A DNA stretch of 64,000 nt from a virus. This document shows positions 13,481-52,400 of this stretch, piece by piece. Numbering within the stretch: the first letter of the stretch is position 1; each line of letters starts with the position of its first letter. Below the pieces are notes generated by a model, which worked only from the letters and a program-made list of their open reading frames with translations, was not told the DNA's origin and did not search any database. Made by a program: the position numbers and the translations under genes. Location of the stretch: IMG/VR virus record IMGVR_UViG_3300042511_000631, positions 32,519 to 96,518 of that record; one strand, written 5' to 3'.

Positions 13481-13520
13481 AAAAAATGTGTAGGGTAGGG
13501 ACTCTTAAAGAGGAGACCTT

Positions 13521-14144
13521 ATGGAAAAGCATTATGTTGTAATTGCGGGTAATGGTGAAACTAGCCGCGCAAACCTTGAAGCCCTTATGGAAGACTACTT
13601 TTACACAAAAGGCGCAGACGGAATAGTCACAGTTCACATTGTTGTGGAAGGCGCGTTAAGCCCCGGAAAAACTTTTGCTACGCAGTACTCAGAAAGCAAG
13701 GGCAAAGAAGTTTTTCAACTGGGCGTAAAAGACAGTCTACAAAAAGCGGATCGAGTAAATACGTCCTGTTTCATCCTGTGGTCTGATGAAGACTCAGAGT
13801 GCCAGAAAGTTTTGGCGGTAGCCACCCAAATGGGGATCCCATGCTTTGACTTGACCGAAGGTCTTCTCCCAATCACCGCATCTAACGGAATCAAGGCTGC
13901 GGTGGAACCCGTGATCCCAGTACAGGAAACCTTGACCCCGCCAGTTGTTGAGGAGCCTTACGTTGAACCTGAGGATGAGGATGTTGAAGAAGACGGCGAA
14001 GAGGAAGAAGCCGAGTACGACGAGGAAGACATGGATAGCCTCTATTTCGGCGTGGAGGCCATTGCCAAGATATTTGCAAAAGCTATGGTTAAGGAATTGA
14101 CCGAGCAGGGTGTTTTAAAGCCTTCCAAGGCACCTGAGGCATGA
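13521..14144 (+). CDS. Hypothetical protein with acidic C-terminal tract
   Basis: ORF with GAGGAG RBS. Confidence 0.6.
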   Translation: MEKHYVVIAGNGETSRANLEALMEDYFYTKGADGIVTVHIVVEGALSPGKTFATQYSESKGKEVFQLGVKDSLQKADRVNTSCFILWSDEDSECQKVLAVATQMGIPCFDLTEGLLPITASNGIKAAVEPVIPVQETLTPPVVEEPYVEPEDEDVEEDGEEEEAEYDEEDMDSLYFGVEAIAKIFAKAMVKELTEQGVLKPSKAPEA

Positions 14145-41481: not shown

Positions 41482-41492
41482 AAGTAAAAGCG

Positions 41493-41527
41493 AAAAGCCC
41501 CCGGTATGAACTTCCGGGGGCTTTTCT
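41493..41527. terminator. Bidirectional terminator at a convergent junction
   Basis: AAAAGCCCCCGG..CCGGGGGCTTTT. Confidence 0.85.
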
Positions 41528-41528
41528 A

Positions 41529-41614
41529 TTGGTAAGCGCAGATCTAGCTACGAGTGATAGGACTCGATCATGACTAGCCTTAGCAGGAAAGGTTGAAGCT
41601 TTAACGCTTACCAA
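41529..41614 (-). ncRNA. Candidate multi-branched structured RNA
   Basis: 10-bp closing stem TTGGTAAGCG/CGCTTACCAA; inner hairpin CGAGT-CCTATC-ACTCG. Confidence 0.4.
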
Positions 41615-41627
41615 CTGTGACTAAACT

Positions 41628-41783
41628 TTAGTTACTAGGTCGAAATCCAAACTCTTCGTCATCATCCTCTTCGTGATCGTGAACGTGCTCTTCATCGTCT
41701 TCATCGTCTTCAAGGGCTGGGATAAAGTTTGGATCATTCGTCGGTGTCCAATCAGGGTTCGGTATAATCTCTTGCGGGGTCAC
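41628..41783 (-). CDS. Very acidic 51-aa protein (not in ORF track)
   Basis: GTG start overlapping the upstream stop; EDDEDDEEHVHDHEEDDDEE. Confidence 0.5.
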   Translation of the reverse strand: MTPQEIIPNPDWTPTNDPNFIPALEDDEDDEEHVHDHEEDDDEEFGFRPSN

Positions 41784-42064
41784 ACTTCTACCTTAAACAC
41801 TACATCGCCATTAAAGTAAACTGGCTTATCTTTGAGATCTCTCTCTGTATTAGCGGCCATTTTAATACTCTTCTTAGGTGTGTGCTCTAGCACCATAGCC
41901 TTGAGCCAACGCTTTCCAGCTGAGGCATTTGACCATGCGGCATATCCAGCGTTGACTGGTCGATCAAAATCAGATCGAGTTATTACAAACTCAGCGATCC
42001 ACGCACCACCTTGTTCGGTGTTCTTGCGTAGCTCTCCGTTAAAATTAGCGTTTACTTTAGCCAT
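41780..42064 (-). CDS. Hypothetical early-region protein
   Basis: GAGGAG RBS before ATG 42064. Confidence 0.6.
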   Translation of the reverse strand: MAKVNANFNGELRKNTEQGGAWIAEFVITRSDFDRPVNAGYAAWSNASAGKRWLKAMVLEHTPKKSIKMAANTERDLKDKPVYFNGDVVFKVEV

Positions 42065-42245
42065 TGATCTCCTCAATTCTGACTTCCGCGAGGGTGTTCT
42101 CGAAGTCGTCTTTAATCCATTTGTGAATCATATCTCTTGCGTCTTCTTCTGTAAAATCTTCAGCTGGATAGTCTTCGGCGAAGTCGTTCATTACATCTTC
42201 GATCTTGTATTCCACCGTCGCGGTGGCTCGGATCATCGTACACAT
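42057..42245 (-). CDS. Small acidic protein
   Basis: D/E-rich coupled ORF. Confidence 0.55.
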   Translation of the reverse strand: MCTMIRATATVEYKIEDVMNDFAEDYPAEDFTEEDARDMIHKWIKDDFENTLAEVRIEEING

Positions 42246-42592
42246 TATAGGTACCCATCTCTTCGATCAGACTCATGGGTTCTACCTTCATGCCACCAAC
42301 CTACTATGACATCGGTAAGGATATCGACGAACTCAGCCTTCTTATCCTCTTTAATGAAGTCGTACTGTAGCAGCAATCTTTTGGCCTGTTTCCTAGCATT
42401 AGCGTATATGTTTTTTGCGGTAATCTGATTAGCATAGTTAAGTGAAGGTGGAATTAGCTCTCTTAACCTACGCGCTTCAGCAATTTTAGCGGCACGCTCA
42501 GCTTCTTGCTCAGGCGTACGCGCCGGTCGACCGGTCATCTCGTTGCGCCAAGCGTCTAGCACATTGTTTAGCGACTTTACTTGGTCACTCAT
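42245..42592 (-). CDS. Hypothetical protein
   Basis: Coupled ORF. Confidence 0.55.
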   Translation of the reverse strand: MSDQVKSLNNVLDAWRNEMTGRPARTPEQEAERAAKIAEARRLRELIPPSLNYANQITAKNIYANARKQAKRLLLQYDFIKEDKKAEFVDILTDVIVGWWHEGRTHESDRRDGYL

Positions 42593-42931
42593 TTATTTCA
42601 CTAACACTTGAATATCGCGGTATTTGACATCAAAGTATAGATCTCTCTCTACTCCCTCTTCATCTTTGTAGAATACTTCTATTCCGAGGGCATTTATTCT
42701 TACGCCGGTTACTTTATAACTTGCGTCGCCAAGGTGGTATTTTTCATGGGTATTGACACTTACGATGAAAGCTTCATGACTTTCATATAAATTACCGTCA
42801 ATCTCTAAAATACTACTATCGTTGTACGGGCGGCCTTCTGGTAATGGCATTGAGTCATCCCAAAGGTCGATTATGTTTGGATCGGTTTCGGTCTTTATCA
42901 TTTGTTTCCTTAGTTTGTGTTGGTTTGGCAT
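42593..42931 (-). CDS. Hypothetical protein (start may be 42902)
   Basis: AAGGA RBS before the internal ATG. Confidence 0.55.
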   Translation of the reverse strand: MPNQHKLRKQMIKTETDPNIIDLWDDSMPLPEGRPYNDSSILEIDGNLYESHEAFIVSVNTHEKYHLGDASYKVTGVRINALGIEVFYKDEEGVERDLYFDVKYRDIQVLVK

Positions 42932-42966
42932 ATTTTATACACGATTACCGGCTACTCGCCAGTAAC

Positions 42967-43074
42967 TTAATCTAGGGTTAAACCTTTGTCTAACCAGTTA
43001 GCTAGGCAGACTGGGCAGCCTAACGCGGTCTTGCTCTCTTCCGGATACTCATGGCCTTGATCGCAGGTAATCAT
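42967..43074 (-). CDS. 35-aa zinc-finger microprotein
   Basis: MITCDQGH..GCPVC. Confidence 0.55.
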   Translation of the reverse strand: MITCDQGHEYPEESKTALGCPVCLANWLDKGLTLD

Positions 43075-43281
43075 TTACTCTTCCCAGCAGTCCACGCATG
43101 AGTTCATGAGCTTAATGCTCTCTACTTCATTGAGCGTAGCTAAGCCCACCTCTAACCTGCCCACGCCACTTGGGTCGCGGGGGTCGGGTAGCCTCTCCCA
43201 TGCGCAGAATCTACATACAGCTAACACGCTTAGGTCACGCTTAGGGCGACTTGTAATAGGTATTACATTCTCATAATCCAC
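43075..43281 (-). CDS. Small zinc-finger protein (start approximate)
   Basis: CRFC..CVDC. Confidence 0.5.
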   Translation of the reverse strand: MDYENVIPITSRPKRDLSVLAVCRFCAWERLPDPRDPSGVGRLEVGLATLNEVESIKLMNSCVDCWEE

Positions 43282-43489
43282 GTTTAATATCCTCTCTAGC
43301 AAATATGACACGGTATATCTCTTGATAGATAGCCGTATAACCGTCAAGCATTCCGTTGTAATAAGCTTTATCTAACTCAGCAGCTTCCTCTATCAATTCC
43401 TCTAAGTCATACATACGGGACTTGAGATCACCATGGATAAGGTCGTGTATCTCTATATCTAAACACGCAATAGCTTTCTCGCTAATCAC
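43271..43489 (-). CDS. Small acidic protein
   Basis: AAGGAG RBS. Confidence 0.55.
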   Translation of the reverse strand: MISEKAIACLDIEIHDLIHGDLKSRMYDLEELIEEAAELDKAYYNGMLDGYTAIYQEIYRVIFAREDIKRGL

Positions 43490-43778
43490 TTAATTCTCCT
43501 TGCTTAATAGCCAATAGTCTTAGTTCCGGCGTTAAACACTCTTCATGGTACTTATCGTTGTATCCATTCTCATTTACTACGGTGATATCCATATCTAAAT
43601 AGATATTCTTTCCGCAGCCGTCACACTCGTAACCGGCACACTCTCCGCAACGCCAGCCGTCTTGCTCTCCGTCGTCGCAGCTAAGGCGGTCAATACCAAT
43701 ACCAACGGTTGAACCGTCGGCCATAGTAAGAATACCTAAGGTAGGTTTCCCGCAGTCAAGGCAAGGGTCATTACTCAT
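43482..43778 (-). CDS. Double zinc-finger protein
   Basis: CLDC..CGEC..CDGC..HEEC. Confidence 0.6.
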   Translation of the reverse strand: MSNDPCLDCGKPTLGILTMADGSTVGIGIDRLSCDDGEQDGWRCGECAGYECDGCGKNIYLDMDITVVNENGYNDKYHEECLTPELRLLAIKQGELSD

Positions 43779-43954
43779 TCTGTAACCTCTTCCGTTTCAA
43801 AGAAAGTGTTAACGGTTTCGCTATTAGACTCCCAGCCATAAACTTCAATATCAGTCATAAGCATTTTTTCAGCTGCCTCTTGGCTCTCAGCTTCATACAC
43901 GTCGTACCAAATATGATTAACTAATTCTGTATATCTAACGGCATATTTAGGCAT
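43775..43954 (-). CDS. 59-aa acidic protein (not in ORF track)
   Basis: MPKYAVRYTE..EAESQEAAE; coupled at both ends. Confidence 0.55.
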   Translation of the reverse strand: MPKYAVRYTELVNHIWYDVYEAESQEAAEKMLMTDIEVYGWESNSETVNTFFETEEVTE

Positions 43955-44109
43955 TAGTTTTCCTCTCTATCGTAATCGACTAGCACTTCATAGCATTCCG
44001 TACACTCGATAGCTACGTTCACAACTTCACTATCTTTATTTACATACCTAGTTATTGAAATATCGTGGCCAAAGTGTGTGTCAAGCTCGGTTAAAGTCTG
44101 TACGCTCAT
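43954..44109 (-). CDS. 51-aa zinc-binding microprotein
   Basis: HFGH..CTEC; coupled. Confidence 0.55.
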   Translation of the reverse strand: MSVQTLTELDTHFGHDISITRYVNKDSEVVNVAIECTECYEVLVDYDREEN

Positions 44110-44339
44110 AACCCTGCCCTTCGTTCAGCTTTCTTTATAGCTTCTTGGATAGTCCGGCAGTAATCCCCGCGGGAACAATTACCGTCATCTGTGGAATCCC
44201 ATACTACATAAGGGTCATAACTGTTTTCTCTCATCGCGAGAACTATATGGTGATCAACTGACAACTGCCAGCTTTCTACACACAACGCGCCGTTTTGTAA
44301 CTGTGTGCCCCGTAGCGCACCGCTCTCTAGTGTGGTCAT
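44106..44339 (-). CDS. Hypothetical protein
   Basis: Coupled ORF. Confidence 0.55.
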   Translation of the reverse strand: MTTLESGALRGTQLQNGALCVESWQLSVDHHIVLAMRENSYDPYVVWDSTDDGNCSRGDYCRTIQEAIKKAERRAGL

Positions 44340-44342
44340 TTG

Positions 44343-44654
44343 TTATTCCCTTTCCTCTACAGATAGATAATGCTTACCTTCAATTTGAACGTATTCATAT
44401 TCAGTATTACCACCGTCAACGACATACCACTCGCCTCCGCCCATTTCAGATATAACGTCGAGAATGTCATACCAATACTCACCCTGAAACCAAGCGTTAG
44501 TGTCAAACTCTTTCAACGTTATCCCGCTGATATCACTTACATAACCGTCGACCGGTGAGGTAAAGCTTAAGCCTCCCTCTATCTCGGTGATCTCGATATT
44601 TGCCCAGATTACTCCGTGCTTATTACGTTCATAATTTTTAGTTATAGTAGTCAT
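44343..44654 (-). CDS. Acidic hypothetical protein
   Basis: Coupled ORF. Confidence 0.55.
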   Translation of the reverse strand: MTTITKNYERNKHGVIWANIEITEIEGGLSFTSPVDGYVSDISGITLKEFDTNAWFQGEYWYDILDVISEMGGGEWYVVDGGNTEYEYVQIEGKHYLSVEERE

Positions 44655-44866
44655 TACTTCTCTTCCTCTTCATCTTGGTATTGAGCCTCTAAGTGGTCGT
44701 TGACATGACCCACGCAGTTATCTAATGCGTTTTCAATTAGCTCTAACGCTTGCTCTTGATCTTTATAAGGCGTGTAATCCTCTTCCCCCCAATAGGTATA
44801 AACCAATACTTCATCAGGGTTTATCTTCATTAAGTCTTCGATTAACTCTTTAACGGTACTGATCAT
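44654..44866 (-). CDS. Acidic hypothetical protein
   Basis: AAGGAGGT RBS. Confidence 0.55.
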   Translation of the reverse strand: MISTVKELIEDLMKINPDEVLVYTYWGEEDYTPYKDQEQALELIENALDNCVGHVNDHLEAQYQDEEEEK

Positions 44867-45006
44867 GCTGATACCTCCTTAGGGCAGTCTGGATATGGAA
44901 AGTCCTCTTGCTCTTCGCATGAGCACCAGTTAAACCGTTCAACTTGGGTGGCATGAGTTAGCTCTGCCAACTCTCCCCAGCTAATTGACTCTTGATCTTT
45001 ACTCAT
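44863..45006 (-). CDS. 47-aa protein (not in ORF track)
   Basis: ATGA-coupled at both ends; H..CSC..C. Confidence 0.5.
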   Translation of the reverse strand: MSKDQESISWGELAELTHATQVERFNWCSCEEQEDFPYPDCPKEVSA

Positions 45007-45581
45007 GCTGATACCCGCTTCGCTGCTTGCTTAATCTCCCAGTCGATCAACGACTTAGCTTCGGTAATGGCGGCGGCGGTATCTTCCCAACCACCGTTAG
45101 AATCACCGTCAATATTGCTAATTACATGGCAGGTATCGCATTCCTCTTGCTTATAGATACGGAAGCGGTAGATATCCCCGCGGAGGTATCGGTCATAGAC
45201 ATATACGTCATTCCGAAGGTGCTCTTCGGCCTCTTCAATAGTCGTATATCCATATGAAGCCATATCGGCTTCGGTGGCATAGATAAACCCGACTTGACCA
45301 CTATCCCAAGGGTCGATACGCGTACCGACGTACATGGAGATACCGGAATGGTCATATAAACCGACCGGAAGGATAGCTACTGCCCCGCACTCAGCGATCA
45401 GGTGAGCTTTAAGTGCCTCCCATGAGTCAAAGTCATTCTCGGTTAGATCAGTCTTATCACCTAAATTGTATTTACGGTGGAAGCAAACCATATGACTGTC
45501 ATCTTGCCAGTCGCGGGGGTTTTGCGGGTCATCGTCTACTGATACTTCAATAGTCCAACCCTTATACTCGATAGACTCCAT
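45003..45581 (-). CDS. Conserved phage/mobile-element protein of unknown function
   Basis: NPR..W, YDHSG, WDSGQVGFIY motifs; acidic. Confidence 0.6.
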   Translation of the reverse strand: MESIEYKGWTIEVSVDDDPQNPRDWQDDSHMVCFHRKYNLGDKTDLTENDFDSWEALKAHLIAECGAVAILPVGLYDHSGISMYVGTRIDPWDSGQVGFIYATEADMASYGYTTIEEAEEHLRNDVYVYDRYLRGDIYRFRIYKQEECDTCHVISNIDGDSNGGWEDTAAAITEAKSLIDWEIKQAAKRVSA

Positions 45582-45583
45582 GG

Positions 45584-45754
45584 CTAGGCCACCTCTACGC
45601 GGAAGCCGAATGCTTCATACTGCTTAGCTAAGCGTTTAGCAGCAGCGGGAGTGAGTTCAGCTGATACAAACTCTTCACGGGTGATTAAGTCAATAATGCG
45701 GGTGGATACTTTCTTACGGGAGTTAAGCTTAGGTAGCTCGACTTCGGTGATCAT
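45584..45754 (-). CDS. 56-aa protein, first gene of the long leftward operon
   Basis: GAAAGG RBS, downstream of promoter 45810-45840. Confidence 0.55.
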   Translation of the reverse strand: MITEVELPKLNSRKKVSTRIIDLITREEFVSAELTPAAAKRLAKQYEAFGFRVEVA

Positions 45755-45809
45755 ATAGTTAACCTTTCAATAGAATAAATTAATCGCGGTGGCTATCACC
45801 ACTTTCCCT

Positions 45810-45840
45810 ATCATAGAGATAGACATATAGAGAGAGTCAA
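45810..45840 (-). promoter_or_regulatory. Leftward SigA-type promoter
   Basis: TTGACT-19-TATGAT followed by a 5' hairpin. Confidence 0.55.
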
Positions 45841-46110
45841 GCCAATATGGGCATATATAGCTATTGTTACCTAATCGTTATAATTGAGGGCTAGAGGGCT
45901 ACTTGGAAGCCTTGCCTCTCTCTCACTCTCTCTCTCTAGCTCATACACACTCTTATCAGCTAAGACTGTCCGGCAACCGGCAGATAATCTGGCCGCGCTG
46001 CTGGGTTGGCCGGTGAGCGGCCGGCAGTAGCCCAATATCGCTAAATAGCTATATCTCTTTGTCGACAATTGGCTAGCACGCCGGCCATAGCTTTGTCAAG
46101 CATCCGGCCG

Positions 46111-46126
46111 TGTTAGCTGCGTCACA
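46111..46126. promoter_or_regulatory. CRP/GlxR-like site
   Basis: TGTTA-GCTGCG-TCACA, one mismatch to TGTGA-N6-TCACA. Confidence 0.45.
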
Positions 46127-46143
46127 CGTTGATCTCTCTCTTT

Positions 46144-46187
46144 ACCCTATCCCGAAGGGATAAGGGGAGGGTGGGTCAACACAAACA
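46144..46187 (+). repeat. Hairpin/G4 repeat copy 1
   Basis: ACCCTATCCCGAAGGGATAAGGGGAGGGTGGGTCAACACAAACA. Confidence 0.95.
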
Positions 46188-46251
46188 AGTTGCCGAGCTG
46201 CGCCGGTCGCCCGGGCAGCTCAGCAAGCTGGCAGTGTTAGCTAATTCATCG

Positions 46252-46350
46252 TTAATCATCCTCTCTACAGATGTCGCACAGTCTTTCCGCGCAACATATT
46301 GACTCGACCGAGCAGCGTTCGCACCACTCTTTATCTAGATCACAGCTCAT
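46252..46350 (-). CDS. 32-aa Cys-rich microprotein
   Basis: MSCDLDKEWCERCSVESICCAERLCDIC; ATGA-coupled. Confidence 0.45.
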   Translation of the reverse strand: MSCDLDKEWCERCSVESICCAERLCDICREDD

Positions 46351-46673
46351 TTACACTCCAAGCTGTATAAAAGGTTCTCCGCGTACTCATACATCGGCGT
46401 GCCCTCAGCTACCTCTGTCCGGGCCCCGTCAAACCAGTCATGAAAGACATACTCCGCGGAAACGATCTCTCCGAACTTGTGCTTTATCTCTAAATAGTCA
46501 CTAGGGCCACCGTAGCTAAAACACACACGGGTGAACTCATATTGATCAATTGCGAGCGCGGGGTCGTCAAAATACTCATCTGGATCAGGGTGATCCATAA
46601 GCAGTCGTAGCTGCGCATTCCTCTGCGCTAGCTCAGCTTGAATGCGATCTTTACAAGGCTCATTACTACTCAT
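46347..46673 (-). CDS. Hypothetical protein
   Basis: Probable start MSSNEPC; SYGGPSD..DWFDGA motifs. Confidence 0.6.
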   Translation of the reverse strand: MSSNEPCKDRIQAELAQRNAQLRLLMDHPDPDEYFDDPALAIDQYEFTRVCFSYGGPSDYLEIKHKFGEIVSAEYVFHDWFDGARTEVAEGTPMYEYAENLLYSLECK

Positions 46674-46818
46674 TTTCACACCCGCACGCGCAGCTAACCG
46701 CTTCGGTAGCTGCTTCGAGCCCTTTCTCTTTAATATATTCGGTGGCGTAGAAAGAGGCCTCCCCAGCGGAGAGGCCAACCTCCATTCCCCAATCTTTAAG
46801 ACGATCAAACGTGCTCAT
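46666..46818 (-). CDS. 50-aa protein (not in ORF track)
   Basis: Coupled ORF MSTFDRLKDW. Confidence 0.45.
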   Translation of the reverse strand: MSTFDRLKDWGMEVGLSAGEASFYATEYIKEKGLEAATEAVSCACGCENE

Positions 46819-46994
46819 AGCTTCCCCTCAATATTCGTCGAATAGCACTCTTTACAAGTGCCTTCCTCAACCTCATGGAACTCTTTGTAAAAGACATCCT
46901 CAAGCTCACCTTTCTCATCGTACTCAGCTTCGTTATAGCTATTCTCACAATAAGTAAAGCGGCGGGTATTACCACAATCTAGACACTTAGGCAT
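46815..46994 (-). CDS. 59-aa acidic zinc-ribbon protein
   Basis: MPKCLDCG..CKEC; GGAGG RBS. Confidence 0.6.
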   Translation of the reverse strand: MPKCLDCGNTRRFTYCENSYNEAEYDEKGELEDVFYKEFHEVEEGTCKECYSTNIEGKL

Positions 46995-47277
46995 TTGTAA
47001 CCTCCAGTTTAGTAGTCCAGTCCGACATATCAGGGTAGTTCAGGCCGAATATAAAGCCACCGCCATTGCCTTCCTCATCTTGCGATATCTCTATCTTGAT
47101 TAGCTTGCCATTAGCAAGGCGCACCGAAAACTGCGGGAAGGAATCCTCACTACACTCAAGGCCAATTTTGCCCTTAAAGCTAATTATCTTTGCGCCCTCT
47201 AATTGGCTATAGTAACGCTTGTAAAACTCAGCAGCTTTAGCTGCGTGGTGATCGTTTAACGCACTCATCTCTCTCAT
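46987..47277 (-). CDS. Hypothetical protein
   Basis: SQDEEGNGGGF motif; first gene of its cassette. Confidence 0.6.
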   Translation of the reverse strand: MREMSALNDHHAAKAAEFYKRYYSQLEGAKIISFKGKIGLECSEDSFPQFSVRLANGKLIKIEISQDEEGNGGGFIFGLNYPDMSDWTTKLEVTNA

Positions 47278-47309
47278 CTCTCTATCAGTTGTGGTATCTC
47301 CACGGTCAT

Positions 47310-47348
47310 AAATTACTCTCTTTCAGCTACTTATCAACCGACACGCCG
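47310..47348 (-). promoter_or_regulatory. Cassette promoter with GACAC box
   Basis: CGGCGTGTCG then TTGATA-16-TAATTT. Confidence 0.55.
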
Positions 47349-47434
47349 CACTTTCGCAGCTATTTTTTTATAACAATATTGTTATCGACTCTCTCGGCGT
47401 GTCTACTTGACATTCCGGCCGACTCTCTCTCCAC

Positions 47435-47478
47435 ACCCTATCCCGAAGGGATAAGGGGAGGGTGGGCCAACACAAACA
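47435..47478 (+). repeat. Hairpin/G4 repeat copy 2
   Basis: ACCCTATCCCGAAGGGATAAGGGGAGGGTGGGCCAACACAAACA. Confidence 0.95.
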
Positions 47479-47506
47479 TTTGGCTTTTGGGTTTAGGCAT
47501 TTCCCT

Positions 47507-47560
47507 AAAATAAAAAGAGAAATGCCCCAGCTGCCGTCTAACAGCCAGGGCATTCTTTTC
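47507..47560 (-). terminator. Intrinsic terminator
   Basis: AATGCCC..GGGCATT stem with an A-rich left flank (U-tract on minus). Confidence 0.6.
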
Positions 47561-47580
47561 TCTGATAGGAGGAAACCTAT

Positions 47581-47862
47581 TTAATCACAACAGCCACAAC
47601 ATTCTACGCAGACCGGTTGATTATCTTTAATATGAGTCCGGCAAGCATACTCACTCATATTCATATCTGGATTCCGGCAGTCCTCACAGATGATCTCCGC
47701 TAATTGCTGCCATGTCATATCTCTTAAGTGCGGGGGTTCATCTTCATCTACATGAGTCCGATAATGGACTATCAGATCACTAGAGGTAGAGAAGTAACCA
47801 AAGCAATACTCACAGACTCTAGTTACCACAGCAACCCTCCCCATTATGGATCTCTTTAACAT
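47581..47862 (-). CDS. C2H2 zinc-finger plus Cys-cluster protein (true start likely ~47830-47844)
   Basis: CEYCFGYFSTSSDLIVHYRTH; CEDC..C..H..CVECCGCC. Confidence 0.65.
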   Translation of the reverse strand: MLKRSIMGRVAVVTRVCEYCFGYFSTSSDLIVHYRTHVDEDEPPHLRDMTWQQLAEIICEDCRNPDMNMSEYACRTHIKDNQPVCVECCGCCD

Positions 47863-47957
47863 CTAACCACCGTAGCACTTCACCGTCATAGACATCGGCG
47901 GTAAAGTTCATAATTGCGTTTAACCATTTTTCATCGATCTCAAGGGTGACTCTGTAG

Positions 47958-48377
47958 TTAGGCACTTGGCACCTCACTATGAGTCGACACGTATGAGTTC
48001 GCGCCCGGAACTACAACACTATTTAACTTGATAATCGCCTTATGAGGGCACGGGCAATCGGGGGTGGGCACATACTCCTCTTTCCAATAAGTAGTGATCT
48101 CCATTAGAGAGTCGCACTCGGTACAAAGATATTGGTGCTTAACCCATGCGCCAAAGTGTGTCTTATTGACCTTAGATACCAAGCCAAGTTCAGCGATCTG
48201 CGGAGAGAGTTCGTCAATCTCTTCATCTAACTCTACACGAATAGATATATAGTCATCATGGTCTTGATTCTGTCTAAGATAGTTCAGATCTACAGCAACG
48301 CCAATAGCCACATCTAGTAGTACCATGGCATCAGGGTCACCCTGTAAATACTTTTCTGCGATCTCGCGGTTGTTCAT
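47958..48377 (-). CDS. Hypothetical protein with zinc ribbon
   Basis: CTEC..CPC. Confidence 0.6.
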   Translation of the reverse strand: MNNREIAEKYLQGDPDAMVLLDVAIGVAVDLNYLRQNQDHDDYISIRVELDEEIDELSPQIAELGLVSKVNKTHFGAWVKHQYLCTECDSLMEITTYWKEEYVPTPDCPCPHKAIIKLNSVVVPGANSYVSTHSEVPSA

Positions 48378-48422
48378 ATTCTCACCTATCAGGATAAGTC
48401 GGCATTGTTACCGACAAAGCAC

Positions 48423-48461
48423 AAGGTAGTGCCTCTCTCAGTTAATTTCAACGACACGCCG
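48423..48461 (-). promoter_or_regulatory. Cassette promoter with GACAC box
   Basis: CGGCGTGTCG then TTGAAA-17-TACCTT. Confidence 0.65.
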
Positions 48462-48523
48462 TAAAATTACTATAACGATATTGTTATAAACTTAACGGCG
48501 TGTCGCCTTGACTCTCTCTCAAT

Positions 48524-48566
48524 ACCCTATCCCGAAGGGATAAGGGGAGGGTGGGCCAACACAAAC
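48524..48566 (+). repeat. Hairpin/G4 repeat copy 3
   Basis: Identical core to copy 2. Confidence 0.95.
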
Positions 48567-48612
48567 TAATAAGCATTGAGGCTTTGGGCAAAATAGTATT
48601 TTGGCATGCCCT

Positions 48613-48651
48613 AAAAAAAAGATCGCCCCCACCGGCAACCGGCAGGGGCGA
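48613..48651 (-). terminator. Intrinsic terminator
   Basis: TCGCCCC/GGGGCGA stem plus A8 (U8 on minus). Confidence 0.75.
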
Positions 48652-48664
48652 GCTTCTATTTAAT

Positions 48665-48823
48665 TTAATCGAAATAACCTTCAGCCCACAGCCCATTTAG
48701 AAAGACTGTCGCCATAGTTAAATTACCATGTAACCAAGGGTCATCAGTATCATTAACAGTAGTTAAAGCAGACTCAATAGCAGTAACCATGTCATCTAGG
48801 TCAGCTTTGGTATATCCCAGCAT
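48665..48823 (-). CDS. 52-aa protein (not in ORF track)
   Basis: MLGYTKADLDDM..LWAEGYFD. Confidence 0.5.
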   Translation of the reverse strand: MLGYTKADLDDMVTAIESALTTVNDTDDPWLHGNLTMATVFLNGLWAEGYFD

Positions 48824-48826
48824 GGC

Positions 48827-49297
48827 TCACCAACTCGACTGGTACTCGAACGACCAGTATTGTCCATATTTTGCGGTGTGTAGGCACTTGTCAACGATAG
48901 CAATCGTATTGCTAAGGCTTTGGTAATACCAGTCATCTCGCTCAGCATTACCAAAGAAAAACCCTTCGGTAGGTTCTAGCACTCCGCCACCTTTACCGCC
49001 AGCAGGTACCAGCAACTCTAACTGGCAAGCCTCTTTAAGTTTGACTAGATCGTCAACGCTTACATAATACGGCTTACAATTATCCTCACCGCCTTGGACA
49101 TTTTCAACGAACCAGTTATGAATTGCGTTAGCCTTGCGCCAATAACCAACATTGAAAGAGATCTCCATTGACGGGGATTGCTCTGATATTTCGACTTGCG
49201 GATATAAAGCTTTTAAGCGATCAAACTCGCTTGTATCGTCTTGGTGCGACCAGCCGCTTATATATTTTTTTGCGTATAAATACATATCTAAACCCAT
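48827..49297 (-). CDS. Conserved phage protein of unknown function
   Basis: MGLDMYL, YWRKANAIHNWFV, GFFFG, YQSSW. Confidence 0.7.
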   Translation of the reverse strand: MGLDMYLYAKKYISGWSHQDDTSEFDRLKALYPQVEISEQSPSMEISFNVGYWRKANAIHNWFVENVQGGEDNCKPYYVSVDDLVKLKEACQLELLVPAGGKGGGVLEPTEGFFFGNAERDDWYYQSLSNTIAIVDKCLHTAKYGQYWSFEYQSSW

Positions 49298-49321
49298 TTA
49301 CTTACTCCTATCTAGTAGTTT

Positions 49322-49351
49322 GGTGAGCAGTTTAATCTCATGCTCAGGAGA
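49322..49351 (-). ncRNA. Small pseudoknot motif, copy 2
   Basis: TCTC-CTGAGCAT-GAGA-TTAAACT-GCTCA. Confidence 0.6.
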
Positions 49352-49360
49352 GATAGGGGA

Positions 49361-49852
49361 TTACGCCAGCGTTTCGGCAGTAATTTTTTGGTTAGCGATC
49401 TCGTTGATGGCTTCAACGATCTTTGAGTGTAGCCCGTCACGCATTTGCTGAACTGATTCGGGTGACCAGCCAGCGCGGATTACGCGTACCACTAGCAAGG
49501 CTAGTGAGTAACTAGGATCTGCCACTAGACACTTTTCTAGTGACGCCATAGCGTCAGCGGTTAGCCCTACTTCATACTGATAAAGGGCTAATACAGCGTT
49601 AAACGGGGTGCGGTGATTCTCCGCGACATTTTCTGCTAGGTAAGCAAGATATTCAAACGCGGTCATAAAGTCTTTTGACTCTACTGTGAAACCGATTAGG
49701 TAATCGCGCAACTGAACTTCATTTGCTACGGCATAACCGATAATGTCTAGTGACAATGGGCTAATGAACTTCTTATCTAAAAAACGCTGATAATTGTTGT
49801 CAATTATCAGTTTTGCCTCTGAAACAGTAGGCAAGGCTTCAATGCTTAACAT
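49361..49852 (-). CDS. DUF4192-like helical-repeat protein
   Basis: LRD..LA..Y..G..A..L..DP.YSLA.L..AG..P. Confidence 0.6.
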   Translation of the reverse strand: MLSIEALPTVSEAKLIIDNNYQRFLDKKFISPLSLDIIGYAVANEVQLRDYLIGFTVESKDFMTAFEYLAYLAENVAENHRTPFNAVLALYQYEVGLTADAMASLEKCLVADPSYSLALLVVRVIRAGWSPESVQQMRDGLHSKIVEAINEIANQKITAETLA

Positions 49853-49900
49853 TGAAATCTCCTATCAAGAGTTACTAGACCGATCTGATCTAGTAAGAGC

Positions 49901-49940
49901 AATTTAATCTCTCGCCCTGTCAATGTAAAGCGACACGCCG
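49901..49940 (-). promoter_or_regulatory. Cassette promoter with GACAC box
   Basis: CGGCGTGTCG then TTTACA-17-TAAATT. Confidence 0.65.
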
Positions 49941-49985
49941 ACCATTTAGCAATTATTTTTTTATTTTTTACGCGCCTCTCTCAAT

Positions 49986-50029
49986 ACCCTATCCCGAAGG
50001 GATAAGGGGAGGGTGGGCCAACACAAACA
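49986..50029 (+). repeat. Hairpin/G4 repeat copy 4
   Basis: Identical core to copy 2. Confidence 0.95.
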
Positions 50030-50082
50030 TATTAGGCATTGGGAAAAGAAGTTTTGGCACCCTATATAAAACGCGGGCACAG

Positions 50083-50110
50083 AAAAGCCCCGGGGGGAAG
50101 GCCGGGGCTG
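50083..50110 (-). terminator. Intrinsic terminator
   Basis: AGCCCCGG/CCGGGGCT stem plus AAAA. Confidence 0.75.
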
Positions 50111-50135
50111 ATCTGTTTATCTGATAGGGATAAAG

Positions 50136-50228
50136 CTAGTTCTCGCAATCGCTACAGGTTGGTTGGCCGTCAACCAGATGATAGCCGGTAATTTCATCTA
50201 CCGGTGAGCCACAACTCCAGCATTTCAT
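50136..50228 (-). CDS. 30-aa C4 zinc-finger microprotein
   Basis: MKCWSCG..CSDCEN; ATGA-coupled to ArdC. Confidence 0.6.
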   Translation of the reverse strand: MKCWSCGSPVDEITGYHLVDGQPTCSDCEN

Positions 50229-51103
50229 GCGCTCACCTCTTCCTTGACCTCGGCGCCTGTAATACACGCAACCGCTTTTTGCGCCTTCGCGCTCGCCTTA
50301 AAGATTAGGCTGGTGTCATTTTTTAGCGCGGTGAGCCAATTCTTTACATAAGCGCCACTATTAGGCAGATCGAATTCGATTCCCGCGGTTGATAACAGCA
50401 TACATGAGCCTAATTCTGCTACCAATTCCTCTTTGGCGTATGACTCGCAACCAAACGCGCTTGGCTTGTCTGCGGAATCCTTCCAGCGATTCACGCGTGA
50501 TTCGTGACCTGTGGAGTGAATCATCTCATGCGCGAAAGTGTAAGCATGCTCGCCTGCGCTGTCGAATTGCTTAAGTGCTGGCAAGGTGATCGAATCTGCG
50601 CTAGGTGAATAAAATGCGCCCGCTTGCTCGCGATAGTAAAGTGTAGGGCGGTTTGCGTATCCTTCCCAGATCGCGTTAATACCTTCTAAAGGTGTTACAG
50701 GCTCGCGGGTGTCTAGGTACTTACTAGGCAATTCGACACCTTCGGTTTGATCTAGGTTGAATACGCTGTCTAACTTATACATGAAGAAAGATTTAGCTGG
50801 ATCGCCCGCTGGCACTTTCTTATCTATGCGCGACATGAACACCACCTTGGTGGCTTTCTCGCCTTTCTTAACGCTTCCGCCCAATTTCTTTGCTTGGTTG
50901 AAAGTAATCCATAGCGGGCGGGAATACTCTAAACCCGCGATAGATAATAGAAGGTTATTTATGCCTTGGTAAGGTTTGCCAGTTTGTAATGATGTCGGCA
51001 TATAGCCATCGGTTGCCCAACCCTTGCGCCATGGCGCATTGCCTTGTTCTAGTTCTGCCATGATCAACCCTGTAACCATGTCCTTGATTTCTGCTTGATT
51101 CAT
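50225..51103 (-). CDS. ardC: ArdC-family antirestriction protein (ssDNA-binding plus zincin domain)
   Basis: PW.K.W, Y.GIN..LL, W.TFNQA..GG.VKKGEK, VFN..Q, AFY.P..D.I..P, HEMIHSTGH, YA.EELVAE. Confidence 0.9.
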   Translation of the reverse strand: MNQAEIKDMVTGLIMAELEQGNAPWRKGWATDGYMPTSLQTGKPYQGINNLLLSIAGLEYSRPLWITFNQAKKLGGSVKKGEKATKVVFMSRIDKKVPAGDPAKSFFMYKLDSVFNLDQTEGVELPSKYLDTREPVTPLEGINAIWEGYANRPTLYYREQAGAFYSPSADSITLPALKQFDSAGEHAYTFAHEMIHSTGHESRVNRWKDSADKPSAFGCESYAKEELVAELGSCMLLSTAGIEFDLPNSGAYVKNWLTALKNDTSLIFKASAKAQKAVACITGAEVKEEVSA

Positions 51104-51145
51104 TTCTATCCCCTATCAAAGGTCACCCGATTAGGTGATGAGATG

Positions 51146-51185
51146 AAGGTATTCTCTATCTCTATGAATTACAAGCCACGCGCCC
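51146..51185 (-). promoter_or_regulatory. Cassette promoter
   Basis: Degenerate box GGGCGCGTGG then TTGTAA-17-TACCTT. Confidence 0.6.
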
Positions 51186-51214
51186 ATTTATTAGGTAACG
51201 ATTAGATAACGATT

Positions 51215-51258
51215 TAATCCACAGCTTTATACACAGGCTGTGGATAACCTGTGGATAA
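51215..51258. promoter_or_regulatory. Cluster of four DnaA boxes
   Basis: TAATCCACA, TTATACACA, TGTGGATAA, TGTGGATAA, spaced 3/3/2 nt. Confidence 0.8.
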
Positions 51259-51266
51259 CTCTCTCC

Positions 51267-51310
51267 ACCCTATCCCGAAGGGATAAGGGGTGGGAGGGCC
51301 AACACAAACA
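51267..51310 (+). repeat. Hairpin/G4 repeat copy 5 (loop bases swapped)
   Basis: ACCCTATCCCGAAGGGATAAGGGGTGGGAGGGCCAACACAAACA. Confidence 0.95.
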
Positions 51311-51341
51311 TTAGGCATCGGGAAATATTATTTGGCGCCCT

Positions 51342-51373
51342 AAAAAAAAGAACCCCCGCTGGGTGCGGGGGCT
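51342..51373 (-). terminator. Intrinsic terminator
   Basis: CCCCCGC/GCGGGGG stem plus A8. Confidence 0.8.
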
Positions 51374-51390
51374 CGATCGATAGGGTTTAT

Positions 51391-51495
51391 CTAAACAGCT
51401 TCACAATCATGTCCGTAATACCACTCACTAGCCTCATTTTCGTTGGCCAGATTAAATATCTTCCAACAGTGCGCGCATCTAATAACAGCTTTCAT
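51391..51495 (-). CDS. 34-aa zinc-binding microprotein
   Basis: CAHC..HDC; AGAAAGG RBS. Confidence 0.6.
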   Translation of the reverse strand: MKAVIRCAHCWKIFNLANENEASEWYYGHDCEAV

Positions 51496-51520
51496 TTTTT
51501 TACCTTTCTAAAGTTGATGT

Positions 51521-51550
51521 GGTGAGCCTTTTAAACCCATGCTCAGGGGC
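51521..51550 (-). ncRNA. Small pseudoknot motif, copy 3
   Basis: GCCC-CTGAGCAT-GGGT-TTAAAAG-GCTCA. Confidence 0.6.
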
Positions 51551-51555
51551 TAGTG

Positions 51556-51693
51556 CTATAACTGCGCTAACAAGCCGTTGTATTCATCCCATGTAATTTG
51601 CTTGGTGTAAAACTGAATTCCTAGTGCTATTTCTTTTTGTTTGCGATCTTCCGGGCCGGAAACAAAAGTTTCGTACCAAGTAGCGTAATCCAT
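51556..51693 (-). CDS. 45-aa protein
   Basis: AGAAAGGA RBS; MDYATWYETF. Confidence 0.55.
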   Translation of the reverse strand: MDYATWYETFVSGPEDRKQKEIALGIQFYTKQITWDEYNGLLAQL

Positions 51694-51716
51694 TTTATAA
51701 TCCTTTCTAGTAAGAG

Positions 51717-51746
51717 GGTGAGCCTTTTAAACCCATGCTCAGGGGT
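51717..51746 (-). ncRNA. Small pseudoknot motif, copy 4
   Basis: ACCC-CTGAGCAT-GGGT-TTAAAAG-GCTCA. Confidence 0.6.
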
Positions 51747-51753
51747 GGGGATC

Positions 51754-52116
51754 TTAGTAGTCTAGAGTTTCGTAATTCTCTAGGTAAGCGATATCCGATT
51801 CGGCAGCGGGGGTGCTGTAAATGCGGATAGATGAAGGAACCATGTCGTAAAGGTTTTCATCGGCAAGTTCGTAAGCCTTTTCAGATGAGCGGGCTTTTAC
51901 AGTAATTTCAGCGGTGTAAAGGAAAGAAACCTTTACAGGGAACTCAGTTTCTAGCCCCTCAAGTCCTAGGCTTTCTAGGAACTCATTTGCGGTGTCCTCG
52001 TCAATGTCATTGTCATTAACAAAGTCAATGAAGGTGGTGCGAACCTGCTCCTTGTAATCAACCAAGGCGTTACGAGTTGCGTTGAGTAACGCAATCGTTT
52101 CTGGCGCGATGTCCAT
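51754..52116 (-). CDS. Acidic hypothetical protein
   Basis: ATG 52116 after TGATAGGGG. Confidence 0.65.
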   Translation of the reverse strand: MDIAPETIALLNATRNALVDYKEQVRTTFIDFVNDNDIDEDTANEFLESLGLEGLETEFPVKVSFLYTAEITVKARSSEKAYELADENLYDMVPSSIRIYSTPAAESDIAYLENYETLDY

Positions 52117-52163
52117 TTTATCCCCTATCAAGAGATTAAGTACCAGCGGTTGCTGATAGGTGT

Positions 52164-52205
52164 ATTTTGACAGGTAGCAAGTAGTGAGTCAATAGCGACA
52201 CGCCC
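52164..52205 (-). promoter_or_regulatory. Cassette promoter with GACAC box
   Basis: GGGCGTGTCG then TTGACT-17-CAAAAT with extended TG. Confidence 0.65.
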
Positions 52206-52256
52206 ATGTCGTATCATCGTTATAAGATCGTTATAAATGACCCCCCCTAGGGTTAA

Positions 52257-52272
52257 TCGAACGCCTGTTCGA
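52257..52272. promoter_or_regulatory. Actinobacterial LexA SOS box
   Basis: TCGAAC-GCCT-GTTCGA, a perfect match to TCGAAC-N4-GTTCGA. Confidence 0.75.
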
Positions 52273-52369
52273 GATCTCCACCAAGGGCTAGCCGTACCTA
52301 ACATGTAGCCCTCAAAGCAGTAGCCTAAAATGACCGGGGGGTGCTAAAAATTTTAATGAGGTTACCTAC

Positions 52370-52400
52370 TTGACAAGACAGTAGCCCATATTGTTAAACT
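52370..52400 (+). promoter_or_regulatory. Rightward leaderless promoter
   Basis: TTGACA-19-TAAACT (extended TG), 6 nt to ATG 52407. Confidence 0.6.

Follow-up and report, generated by a model that had tools for sequence, protein, structure and literature searches.

The early region of this phage raises the question of why the ribosome-binding sites (RBSs) that lead its gene cassettes share one motif, GAUAGG, and why the complement of that motif, CCUAUC, recurs close behind stop codons in the same region. The window, by which we mean the whole stretch of DNA analysed here (64,000 nucleotides), comes from a 96.5 kb lake myovirus with a family A polymerase and direct terminal repeats; none of the T4 hallmark genes was found among ten large proteins. 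Its cassette genes encode ArdC, a DUF4192-like protein and small zinc-ribbon proteins, and the order within an early cassette is extended -10 promoter, leader, a Shine-Dalgarno (SD) context of the form YGAUAGGRG, one to three genes, stop codon, CCUAUC element and rho-independent terminator. Promoters and terminators are predicted, as are the transcript ends of all units, each unit being bracketed by promoter-like and terminator-like sites. Pieces of the phage also occur in one RNA library, as contigs only, which are silent on RNA ends or structure.

The 5' copies of the motif lie 7-12 nt ahead of start codons, the distance being 7-10 nt for those at 52124, 51112, 49861, 49307, 48385 and 47280, and an additional copy of the complement is found in the U1 leader:

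52154-52160, minus strand: CCUAUCA that begins the U1 leader or lies close to its 5' end, some 30 nt ahead of the U1 RBS; absent from the earlier list of motifs, and reading CCUAUUA in a natural variant
52124-52130, minus strand: UGAUAGG(GG), RBS context of the first U1 gene (start ATG 52116)
51112-51118, minus strand: UGAUAGG(GG), RBS context of ArdC, cassette U2 (start 51103)
49861-49867, minus strand: UGAUAGG(AG), RBS context of the DUF4192-like gene, cassette U3 (start 49852)
49307-49313, minus strand: AGAUAGG(AG), RBS context of the second U3 gene (start 49297)
48385-48391, minus strand: UGAUAGG(UG), RBS context of the first U4 gene (start 48377)
47280-47287, minus strand: variant UGAUAGAG (TGATAGAG at 47280) before the 96-aa gene of cassette U5 (start 47277), a gene that has GAUAGG in several relatives

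The motif coordinates listed in the initial annotation all hold, and so does its observation that these leaders differ from those of other genes: GATAG falls within the RBS zone of six of the seven cassette genes and of only about 4 of 140 other genes, most of which use AGGAG, AAGGAG or AAGG. The cassette RBSs are not, however, truly non-canonical as had been claimed, in that they have a normal SD core (AGGAG, AGGGG or AGGUG) as their 3' half and the unusual part is the invariant GAU preceding it. Two further copies had been assigned to -10 elements; the one at 45807 does overlap a TATGAT, 19 nt after a TTGACT, while the one at 27027 is the RBS of a gene starting at 27042.

The k-mer enrichment proposed as a check was found for TGATAGG, with 13 copies in the window where 6.1 are expected and none of 100 shuffles attaining that number, but not for GATAGG alone (28 against 22.4, window-wide). 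GATAGG is instead clustered: 16 of the 37 whole-genome copies of GATAGG/CCTATC lie in the 6.4 kb from 45800 to 52200, against 1.5 expected (P 7e-12), and the clustering persists with 11 GATAGG copies (P 5e-7) after removal of the five that are internal to a repeat, D1, in which the motif had also been noticed:

46134-46193, 47425-47484, 48514-48573, 49976-50035 and 51257-51316, minus strand: D1 repeats, one after each terminator, marking the cassette borders

All five D1 copies contain GATAGG, while those of the closest relative, G001, do not, and the GGGAUAGGG within D1 is probably not part of the system described here.

The 3' copies are found 1-12 nt past a stop codon and ahead of a predicted rho-independent terminator, with two features of a different kind, one between genes and one at the end of the leftward early block:

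51378-51385, minus strand: U1 3' element CCCUAUCG, 6 nt past the stop at 51391-51393 and followed by the terminator at 51350-51374
50116-50134, minus strand: U2 3' hairpin, stem UUUAUC/GAUAAA and loop CCUAUCA, 1 nt past the stop and followed by the terminator at 50086-50109
49351-49357, minus strand: internal U3 CCUAUCU, just past the stop of the first U3 gene and complementary to the next RBS (49307), about 45 nt downstream
47557-47576, minus strand: U4 3' element UUUCCUCCUAUCAGAGAAA, between the stop at 47581-47583 and the terminator at 47520-47555
41529-41615, minus strand: structured RNA (z -6.1) that ends the leftward early block, with a 10-bp closing stem and a strong terminator next; absent from the earlier list

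That the complement follows the stop codon of the same units is thus borne out at 47564, 50123 and 51379, which lie 3-12 nt past stops and upstream of predicted terminators; the copy at 49352 follows an internal stop upstream of the next RBS, has a local pairing probability of 0.39 and is not conserved in G001. The closing stem of the structured RNA encloses a hairpin (CGAGU/ACUCG) with the loop CCUAUC, together with an exposed ACCUUUCC; in the G001 homolog the stem is kept via changed pairs and AACCUUUC is kept, but CCUAUC is not. A search of Rfam gave no match at gathering score, and at E up to 1 only a weak terminator-like match in 41400-52400. Several cassettes have the RBS motif but lack a 3' element, namely the end of U3, U5, three of the five G001 units, two of the three L104 units and all units of L188.

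Co-variation in relatives, also suggested as a check, was observed. In the leader RBSs of the window, G001 and L104, GAUAGG is unchanged in 16 of 17. Four genomes keep the ArdC unit's closing module, in which a CCUAUC element stands between stop codon and terminator, and the last gene of the unit is different in each; the hairpin of the module has the stem UUUAUC/GAUAAA in the window and other stems in G001, L104 and L107, UUUCC/GGAAA and UCUUC/GAAGA being among those seen, with a loop that is constantly CCUAUC. The G001 ortholog of the U4 3' element is likewise a hairpin (6 bp, loop UCCUAUC), and CCUAUCA forms the loop of terminator-like hairpins of 13 bp in L008 and 10 bp in L107. Motif and complement also change together: CGAUAGG occurs with CCUAUCG in G001 and L104, UGAUAGG with CCUAUCA or CCUAUCG in the window, and quite different pairs in more distant lineages, such that the leader motifs of relatives (CGAUAGG, GAGAAAGG, GGGCUAG, GGGCUAA, GGGCUGA and GGGGCAA) have matching complements in 3' hairpin loops. 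Individual pairs are:

L114: leader GAGAAAGG, 3' loop CCUUUCUC
L014: leader GGGCUAG, 3' loop CUAGCCC
L006: leader GAGGGCUAA, 3' loop UUAGCCCUC
L007: leader GGGCUGAUU, 3' loop AAUCAGCCC
L061: leader GGGCUGU, 3' loop ACAGCCC
L010: leader GGGGGCAAG, 3' loop CUUGCCCCC

L006 and L014 provide a direct comparison, as they have orthologous units (proteins 93% identical) in which the leader motifs differ and the terminator loops differ correspondingly. When hairpin loops were scanned without bias for complements of at least 7 nt, matches were found in 23 of 468 loops within the own genome and in 33 of 4197 when loops were compared between motif classes (odds ratio 6.5, P 9e-10, although P values overstate independence because the relatives compared are few and related). 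By orientation, the within-genome matches comprised 23 reverse complements, 4 sense, 7 reverse and 6 complement.

These controls bear on the possibility that the complementarity has no function, the leader motif being kept by descent and by gene conversion among paralogous leaders, and the pyrimidine- or C-rich flanks of terminators matching a purine-rich SD by composition. Leaders and 3' modules are indeed repeated, related sequences, the compared genomes are related, and a 7-nt match is near chance level for any one pair. The same-composition cross-class and orientation controls nevertheless leave a 3- to 6-fold excess of own-genome reverse complements, leader/loop matches of 9-11 nt are present in seven genomes, and the flanks of GAUAGG are free to vary. 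An absence of function is accordingly disfavoured, and we consider it improbable.

The initial annotation had offered, next to an RNA fold-back, inverted operator or recombination sites in DNA. Such sites could be half-sites of a lineage-specific DNA-binding protein flanking the cassette cargo, or points of recombination in the manner of the PeSL elements, whose role in shuffling is documented (PMC2839356, PMC4122927), and the motifs do lie exactly at the borders between conserved modules and variable genes: the modules stay while the genes between them differ among relatives. The details fit DNA sites more poorly than RNA. The 5' copy keeps a set distance of 7-12 nt to the start codon; every 3' copy falls within the transcript, beside a stop codon and ahead of the terminator, and the loops that hold it have co-varying stems, a feature relevant to single strands and not to duplex DNA; the pairs include matches of the G-U type (UGAUAGG with CCUAUCG); and homologous recombination between modules requires no inverted repeat. 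Of all the explanations weighed here, we judge this one the least probable.

A short hairpin immediately upstream of a terminator, variable in its stem and conserved in its loop of 6-7 nt, could also be a protein-binding site, as in nut/boxB-like antitermination, for which lambda nutR, lying between cro and tR1, is a model. GAUAGG would then be a signal in its own right, such as one bound by a translational repressor, and its complementarity to the loop would be incidental. This leaves unexplained both the complementarity of loop and leader in five or six motif classes and their joint change, and we regard it as very improbable. Sequence comparison and folding models together make it a well-supported conclusion that selection maintains RNA pairing between the 5' and 3' copies, the 3' copy being an anti-RBS.

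How far this pairing takes place within one mRNA is a separate question. In folds of full-length transcripts, the probability of a helix between RBS and 3' element was 0.84 for U2, 0.995 for U4 and 0.98 for unit C of G001, compared with a mean of 0.03 (0 of 10 above 0.5) in ten control transcripts from the same genome. For U1 it was 0.999 with a transcription start at 52150-52162, as set by the predicted promoter, and 0.02 with a start at 52206. The ArdC duplex of about 15 bp with one bulge that had been described earlier was reproduced (RNAduplex, -17.3 kcal/mol), and duplexes of CCUAUC elements with their own GAUAGG contexts ranged from -14 to -17 kcal/mol. Closure was not predicted by folding for the ArdC units of G001 (P 0.09) and L107 (0.007) or for most L107 units. 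The duplex matrix showed no own-unit specificity, and the U4 3' element forms better duplexes with the RBSs of U1-U3 than with that of U4. Of the fold-back originally envisaged, the RNA pairing thus stands on conservation, co-variation, orientation and the U1, U2 and U4 folds, while intramolecular closure is weakened by the lack of own-unit preference, the missing 3' copies and the two relatives whose ArdC units have low predicted closure.

The 3' elements might instead act mainly in trans, with mRNA ends consisting of hairpin and terminator, together with the 41529-41615 RNA, outliving decay, accumulating and silencing every cassette leader with the common motif. The phage would in this way encode its own delayed shut-off of early genes, comparable to 3'-UTR-derived sRNAs or the c4 RNA of P1/P7. 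It would suit a leader motif that is lineage-specific and common to all cassettes while the 3' element occurs in some only, as well as duplexes without own-unit specificity and relatives, several in number, without predicted cis closure. In the manner of antisense regulators, the element is also exposed in the loop of a hairpin or terminator whose stem co-varies, and the structured RNA with its CCUAUC loop sits in a unit whose own leader RBS is GAAAGGU rather than GAUAGG. For phages there is a precedent in c4, which, as summarised in PMC12197685, has loops complementary to the target RBS and heteroimmune specificity. Action in trans gives no obvious reason, however, for the spacing of 1-12 nt to the stop codon; strong intramolecular closure is predicted in four units; and in L006, L007 and L010 the best (9-nt) loop match is the leader of the own unit. 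We consider a mainly trans mode rather unlikely.

The reading that we prefer is that pairing of the RBS with its 3' complement as RNA most likely limits early protein synthesis. That the CCUAUC copies are anti-RBS elements, and that each 3' element closes the RBS of its own mRNA once the transcript is complete, we put at about an even chance from sequence and folding models. The RBS would be free during mRNA synthesis, allowing co-transcriptional translation, and would become closable once the 3' end is made; the 3' element would then pair with the GAUAGG context and mask the 5' part of the SD, such that binding of the 30S subunit is blocked. A ribosome terminating 1-12 nt upstream of the CCUAUC element may melt the duplex, and lasting closure would thus be expected only when ribosome traffic thins. 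Because one motif is common to all leaders of a phage, the 3' elements would also be able to pair with the leaders of other cassettes. The motifs with their positions, enrichment, conservation and co-variation across lineages, and the thermodynamic closure of some units, are direct results; where the transcripts end, whether the copies pair in the cell, how translation responds and what the terminating ribosome does are the parts of this model that we infer.

A broader form of the model is possible, though we hold it as doubtful: that this family of lake phages has a private, lineage-specific code for translation initiation, with one SD-plus-flank motif in the leaders and its complement in the 3' loops of cassettes, as a protein-free timer that ends early translation. 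GAUAGGAG differs by one base from the canonical extended SD GAAAGGAG, and its partner CUCCUAUC differs by one compensating base from a 16S tail CUCCUUUC; on the leaders of the phage, the anti-RBS would therefore prevail over the ribosome, and ordinary mRNAs would be spared.

The switch-off of phage early genes is known mainly via protein factors, such as RegA and RegB of T4, and via repressors. If the model is correct, an RNA device built into every early mRNA, by which the mRNA is closed or silenced on completion, would be a simple and general timer, and the first family-wide case of pairing between a 3' end and an RBS, earlier cases being single bacterial genes. The lineage-specific motif pairs are natural compensatory mutants, which makes the idea directly testable with reporters. 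A private code that differs among relatives could also be a specificity barrier between co-infecting phages. In practical terms, the leader motif common to the cassettes, together with the TTTGTGTTG boundary element, helps to annotate early cassettes in metagenomic phages, and self-limiting expression systems would gain useful parts in orthogonal RBS/anti-RBS pairs.

Among known systems, the cassette architecture recalls the PeSLs of T4-like phages, composite terminator/early-promoter repeats between small variable ORFs (PMC2839356, PMC4122927). The sequences and the phage type are different, and PeSLs are not known to carry complementary RBS and 3' motifs. What is shared is that repeated terminator/promoter modules flank small variable early genes whose content is swapped between relatives: the window has five terminator/D1/promoter modules, and the cargo between conserved modules differs in G001, L104 and L107.

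In hok/sok, the fbi element at the 3' end base-pairs with the 5' terminus and keeps the full-length mRNA untranslated until 3' trimming activates it, in the presence of the Sok antisense RNA and a toxin gene. The phage units resemble hok in that their 3' end would pair with a region towards the 5' end of one mRNA, but the partner is the RBS, 30-75 nt inside the leader; with no toxin among the cassette genes and no sign of activating 3' processing, the hok-like expression pulse suggested at the outset is not supported.

Terminator hairpins with an upstream seed, or loops that pair with SD regions, are known from 3'-UTR-derived sRNAs, RNAIII hairpins and the actinobacterial 6C RNA. Unlike those of C-rich-loop regulators, the loops described here match the SD plus its flank rather than the SD core alone, and they match no Rfam family.

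The c4 RNA of P1/P7, one of the two nearest precedents, is a discrete 77-nt antisense RNA with a single target, ant (Citron and Schuster 1990, as summarised in PMC12197685). In that summary its loops are complementary to the target-RBS region and loop and target co-vary between related phages, both of which are seen here; the phage elements are instead the 3' ends of several mRNAs, without an Rfam family match, and their targets are many leaders. The other is icaR mRNA of S. aureus, in which a short, pyrimidine-rich 3'-UTR motif is the complement of the mRNA's own SD region, as CCUAUC is of GAUAGG, pairs with that region and blocks initiation (PMC3868564). There it concerns one bacterial gene, with a 3' UTR of more than 100 nt and an RNase III substrate (PMC3868564); the putative phage counterpart extends over a whole cassette array with very short 3' UTRs, an element often placed in a hairpin or terminator loop and a motif pair specific to each lineage.

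The source record of the window is a 96.5 kb virus with direct terminal repeats, of which bases 32519-96518 are covered here. Its genes for a tail sheath and baseplate proteins, along with those for family A DNA polymerase, SNF2 helicase and class II ribonucleotide reductase, make the phage a myovirus. At least 19 metagenome runs from lake water contain near-identical DNA, and metatranscriptome run X24 yields a few contigs on early genes, which reveal neither transcript ends nor levels. No DNA match to 46000-52400 was found in the public phage collection; at the Rfam gathering score the whole window returned nothing, 41400-52400 gave only a weak terminator-like match (E 0.36) and no family match, and a tRNA scan found none.

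Genes at ~42.2-52.1 kb lie on the minus strand and, read in that direction, this early block is a row of short units, among them the cassettes U1-U5 (U2 being the ArdC cassette and U3 that of the DUF4192-like gene). Each unit passes from a stop codon through a short element or hairpin to a GC-rich hairpin with a U run (the terminator), then through a 60-nt repeat (D1) and a palindrome with an extended -10 (TGnTATAAA-like) to a CGGCGTGTCG box, and finally through a leader of ~60-100 nt and the RBS to the genes.

Features of the early block
~42.2-52.1 kb, minus strand: DUF4192-like protein and many small Cys-rich proteins
50225-51103, minus strand: ArdC, within the early block
51374-51350, 50109-50086, 48651-48623 and 47555-47520, minus strand: predicted terminators (GC-rich hairpin plus U run)
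46134-51316: D1, 60-nt repeat, five copies
52154-52160, mRNA strand: CCUAUC copy in the U1 leader
41529-41615, minus strand: structured RNA with a CCUAUC hairpin loop (z -6.1), at the very end of the early block

The same unit architecture, its post-terminator element again starting with TTTGTGTTG, recurs on over 20 further lake-phage contigs (L006-L114), at 58 cassette borders in all. Many lake-phage contigs keep the post-terminator element, which proceeds from TTTGTGTTG through a C-rich CCCRCCCWCCC and a short hairpin to GAGAGAG. In many copies a co-varying stem (GAGAC/GTCTC, GAATG/CATTC or GGAAC/GTTCC) surrounds the C-rich stretch, forming a hairpin with a C-rich loop; the D1 copies of the window lack this stem and have a C(UUCG)G-capped hairpin instead.

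Cassette promoters have TTATAACaATaTTGTTATAA-type palindromes across their extended -10 (47371-47386, 48470-48489, 52216-52240 and 45863-45887); these are followed by CGGCGTGTCG, the inverse of which also precedes them in two cassettes. L114, L104 and L107 keep these palindromes, which look like an operator common to all cassette promoters. Another palindrome, TCGAACGCCTGTTCGA, occupies 52256-52272, where the leftward and rightward early promoters diverge. Between D1 and the ArdC promoter, 51225-51262 contains two TTATCCACA boxes together with one TGTGGATTA in inverted orientation (DnaA-box-like), and the closest relative phage, G001, has a similar pair (CTGTGGATAAACCTGTGGATAAAG) at the matching place (locus L023, ~10013-10045). 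Between genes within cassettes (49303-49348, 51502-51547 and 51698-51743), we found an intergenic repeat, CCTGAGCATGrGnTTAAAnnGCTCACC, with the hairpin UGAGC(A)/(U)GCUCA, which is also present in G001, L104, L107 and L061.

The initial annotation had reported TGATAGG in the RBS context of cassette-leading genes and its complement at the 3' end, and all of its motif coordinates were correct. TGATAGG is enriched in the window (13 copies versus 6.1 expected), and 16 of the 37 genome copies of GATAGG/CCTATC fall within 6.4 kb, versus 1.5 expected. The minus-strand copies at 52124, 51112, 49861, 49307 and 48385, and the variant at 47280, sit 7-10 nt before start codons. By a rough gene list for the whole genome, GATAG occupies the RBS zone of 6/7 cassette genes versus ~4/140 others, whose RBSs are mostly AGGAG, AAGGAG or AAGG. 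Non-canonical is too strong a word for this RBS, since an ordinary SD core makes up the motif's 3' half; what is unusual is the invariant GAU ahead of it. Across the window, G001 and the relative L104, GAUAGG is invariant in 16/17 leader RBSs, and the neighbouring bases vary. Lake metagenome run X20 contains a natural variant with three extra bases in the ArdC spacer, 51104-51110 (GAUAGGGAGAUAGAGAAAUG), in which GAUAGG and the 3' CCUAUCA are retained, and a variant of U1 in which the leader CCUAUCA has become CCUAUUA.

At plus-strand 47564, 50123 and 51379 the mRNA strand reads CCUAUC between stop codon and terminator; the copy at 49352 follows an internal stop. Two further copies on the mRNA strand lie at 52154-52160 and within 41529-41615. 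The structured RNA at the latter position, which follows the last early gene and precedes a strong terminator, has an exposed ACCUUUCC; its G001 homolog, located by position (locus L024, ~13440-13560), keeps the closing stem via changed pairs and also keeps AACCUUUC, and BLAST of the RNA against all fetched loci gave no match. The 15-bp ArdC duplex with one bulge was reproduced (-17.3 kcal/mol). No conserved local fold of the 3' region emerged, MFE folds differing between units; consistency was limited to the small hairpin found in the ArdC unit and in G001 unit C. A candidate partner inside D1, GGGAUAGGG, was rejected because the D1 copies of G001 lack it.

Co-variation was examined in G001, a syntenic 98 kb phage (ArdC 62% identical); L104, a 3.9 kb contig and the sole relative from the metagenome scan with the DUF4192-like protein; and L107, which with L013 comes from one 34 kb contig (ArdC 51% identity); few close relatives were compared, the main limit on this test, and their start sites and gene calls are heuristic. 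Many further ArdC relatives were found (55-96% identity), and the design is unchanged in L008 and L106. Pattern scans of viral contigs returned only the two known relatives for the ArdC-unit terminator and, for the U4-type leader, mostly chance matches plus L188. Four genomes keep the module of stop codon, element and terminator that follows the ArdC unit, with a different last gene of the unit in each. In all four, CCUAUC is the loop of a small hairpin, and the stems differ: UUUAUC/GAUAAA (window), UUUCC/GGAAA (G001, L104) and UCUUC/GAAGA (L107). When six 3' modules are aligned the hairpins are out of register. L008 and L107 display CCUAUCA as the loop of terminator-like hairpins of 13 and 10 bp. 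The RBS of G001 and L104 is mostly CGAUAGG and their 3' element always CCUAUCG; UGAUAGG, accompanied by either CCUAUCA or CCUAUCG, is found in the window and L107. Duplexes are stronger within a genome than across genomes. Inverted DNA-level sites for a protein or for recombination, the second reading of the initial annotation, would explain the position of the copies at module borders; they leave unexplained the fixed distance to start codons, the placement of the 3' copy inside the transcript, before the terminator, the stems co-varying around the loop and the G-U type matches, and we do not favor them.

With TTTGTGTTG as the anchor, cassettes were delimited in 12 genomes or contigs. The cassette leaders of each lineage share an initiation motif of their own, with the reverse complement in 3' hairpin or terminator loops, and the two change together across lineages.

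Leader motifs and 3' loops by lineage
Window, L107, L008: leader YGAUAGGRG; 3' loop CCUAUC(A)
G001, L104: leader CGAUAGGAG; 3' loop CCUAUCG
L114: leader GAGAAAGGA (also given as GAGAAAGG); 3' loop CCUUUCUC (16-nt loop, 11-bp stem)
L014: leader GGGGCUAGA; 3' loop CUAGCC(C), a terminator loop
L006: leader GAGGGCUAA; 3' loop UUAGCCCUC
L007: leader GGGCUGAUU; 3' loop AAUCAGCCC
L061: leader GGGCUGU; 3' loop ACAGCCC
L083: leader GGGGCAG or GGGGCAA; 3' loops CUGCCC and CCCUUCC
L010: leader GGGGGCAAG; 3' loop CUUGCCCCC

In a blind scan, every simple hairpin loop within 125 nt ahead of an anchor was scored for own-genome complements of at least 7 nt. Such complements were found for 23/468 loops, versus 33/4197 between motif classes (odds ratio 6.5, P 9e-10, statistics in which independence is overstated since the genomes are related), and the own-genome orientation control gave 23 for the reverse complement, 4 for sense, 7 for reverse and 6 for complement. 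Orthologous units of L006 and L014 encode proteins that are 93% identical, and the two nonetheless differ in leader motif and matching loop. Chance plus descent is disfavored by the cross-class and orientation controls, and even with related genomes the leader/loop pattern is what selection for base pairing would predict, and composition or descent alone would not. A nut-like protein-binding site at the 3' hairpin before the terminator would account for the hairpin, but not for the complementarity or its co-variation. We infer that GAUAGGAG/CUCCUAUC may be a private variant that departs by one base from the canonical pair of extended SD and 16S tail. In L006, L007, L010, L014, L061, L083 and L114, SD plus spacer is near-identical within a lineage up to the start codon (in L014, GGGGCTAGAC-ATG), which makes it handy for calling early cassettes.

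We commit to RNA-level anti-RBS pairing that, judging from sequence and modeled folds, would limit translation of early cassette mRNAs. Its mode was addressed with partition-function folds of whole predicted transcripts.

Predicted probability (P) of the RBS-3' helix
U2 (ArdC): 0.84
U4: 0.995
G001 unit C: 0.98
U1, TSS of the sigma-70-like promoter (~52150-52162): 0.999
U1, with the TSS placed 45 nt more upstream: 0.02
Controls (ten transcripts from other parts of the genome): mean 0.03, none above 0.5

Predicted closure becomes weaker when transcription reads through into the next cassette, and in such RNA no pairing with that cassette's RBS was predicted above P 0.02. Because the element adjoins the stop codon, strong closure is predicted in four units and the best match in L006, L007 and L010 (9-nt) is the unit's own leader, intramolecular closure is most likely the primary mode, in preference to action of the 3' elements between molecules. 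Action in trans is nevertheless a serious second, and the two are not exclusive: one motif common to all leaders and few loop-displayed complements would suit a trans regulator. Several observations also speak against a purely intramolecular device: the duplex energy matrix has no own-unit preference; no 3' element accompanies the RBS motif at the end of U3, in U5 or in many cassettes of relatives; closure is not predicted for the ArdC units of G001 (0.09) and L107 (0.007) or most L107 units; loops on terminator stems would need to form pseudoknots, a type of pairing beyond the reach of the folding program; and the terminal structured RNA carries CCUAUC, though its unit's own leader uses GAAAGGU. 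The self-closing mRNA of the initial annotation survives as a strong prediction in four units, but not as a rule for orthologous units.

Its likeness to hok did not hold, as the window cassettes do not share hok's defining features. A small literature search turned up no account of a lineage-specific leader motif matched, in an array across a whole phage, by the 3' hairpin or terminator loops of the cassettes. In their architecture, the cassettes work as do the PeSL modules of T4-like phages (PMC2839356, PMC4122927). For anti-RBS pairing in the phage, the closest experimentally shown mechanism is the icaR mRNA of S. aureus, whose SD region pairs with a motif in the 3' UTR (PMC3868564), the hbs mRNA of B. 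subtilis being another 5'/3'-UTR case (PMC5737220). The closest phage case is the c4 RNA of P1 and P7, whose loops are complementary to the ant RBS region in phage-specific pairs (PMC12197685).
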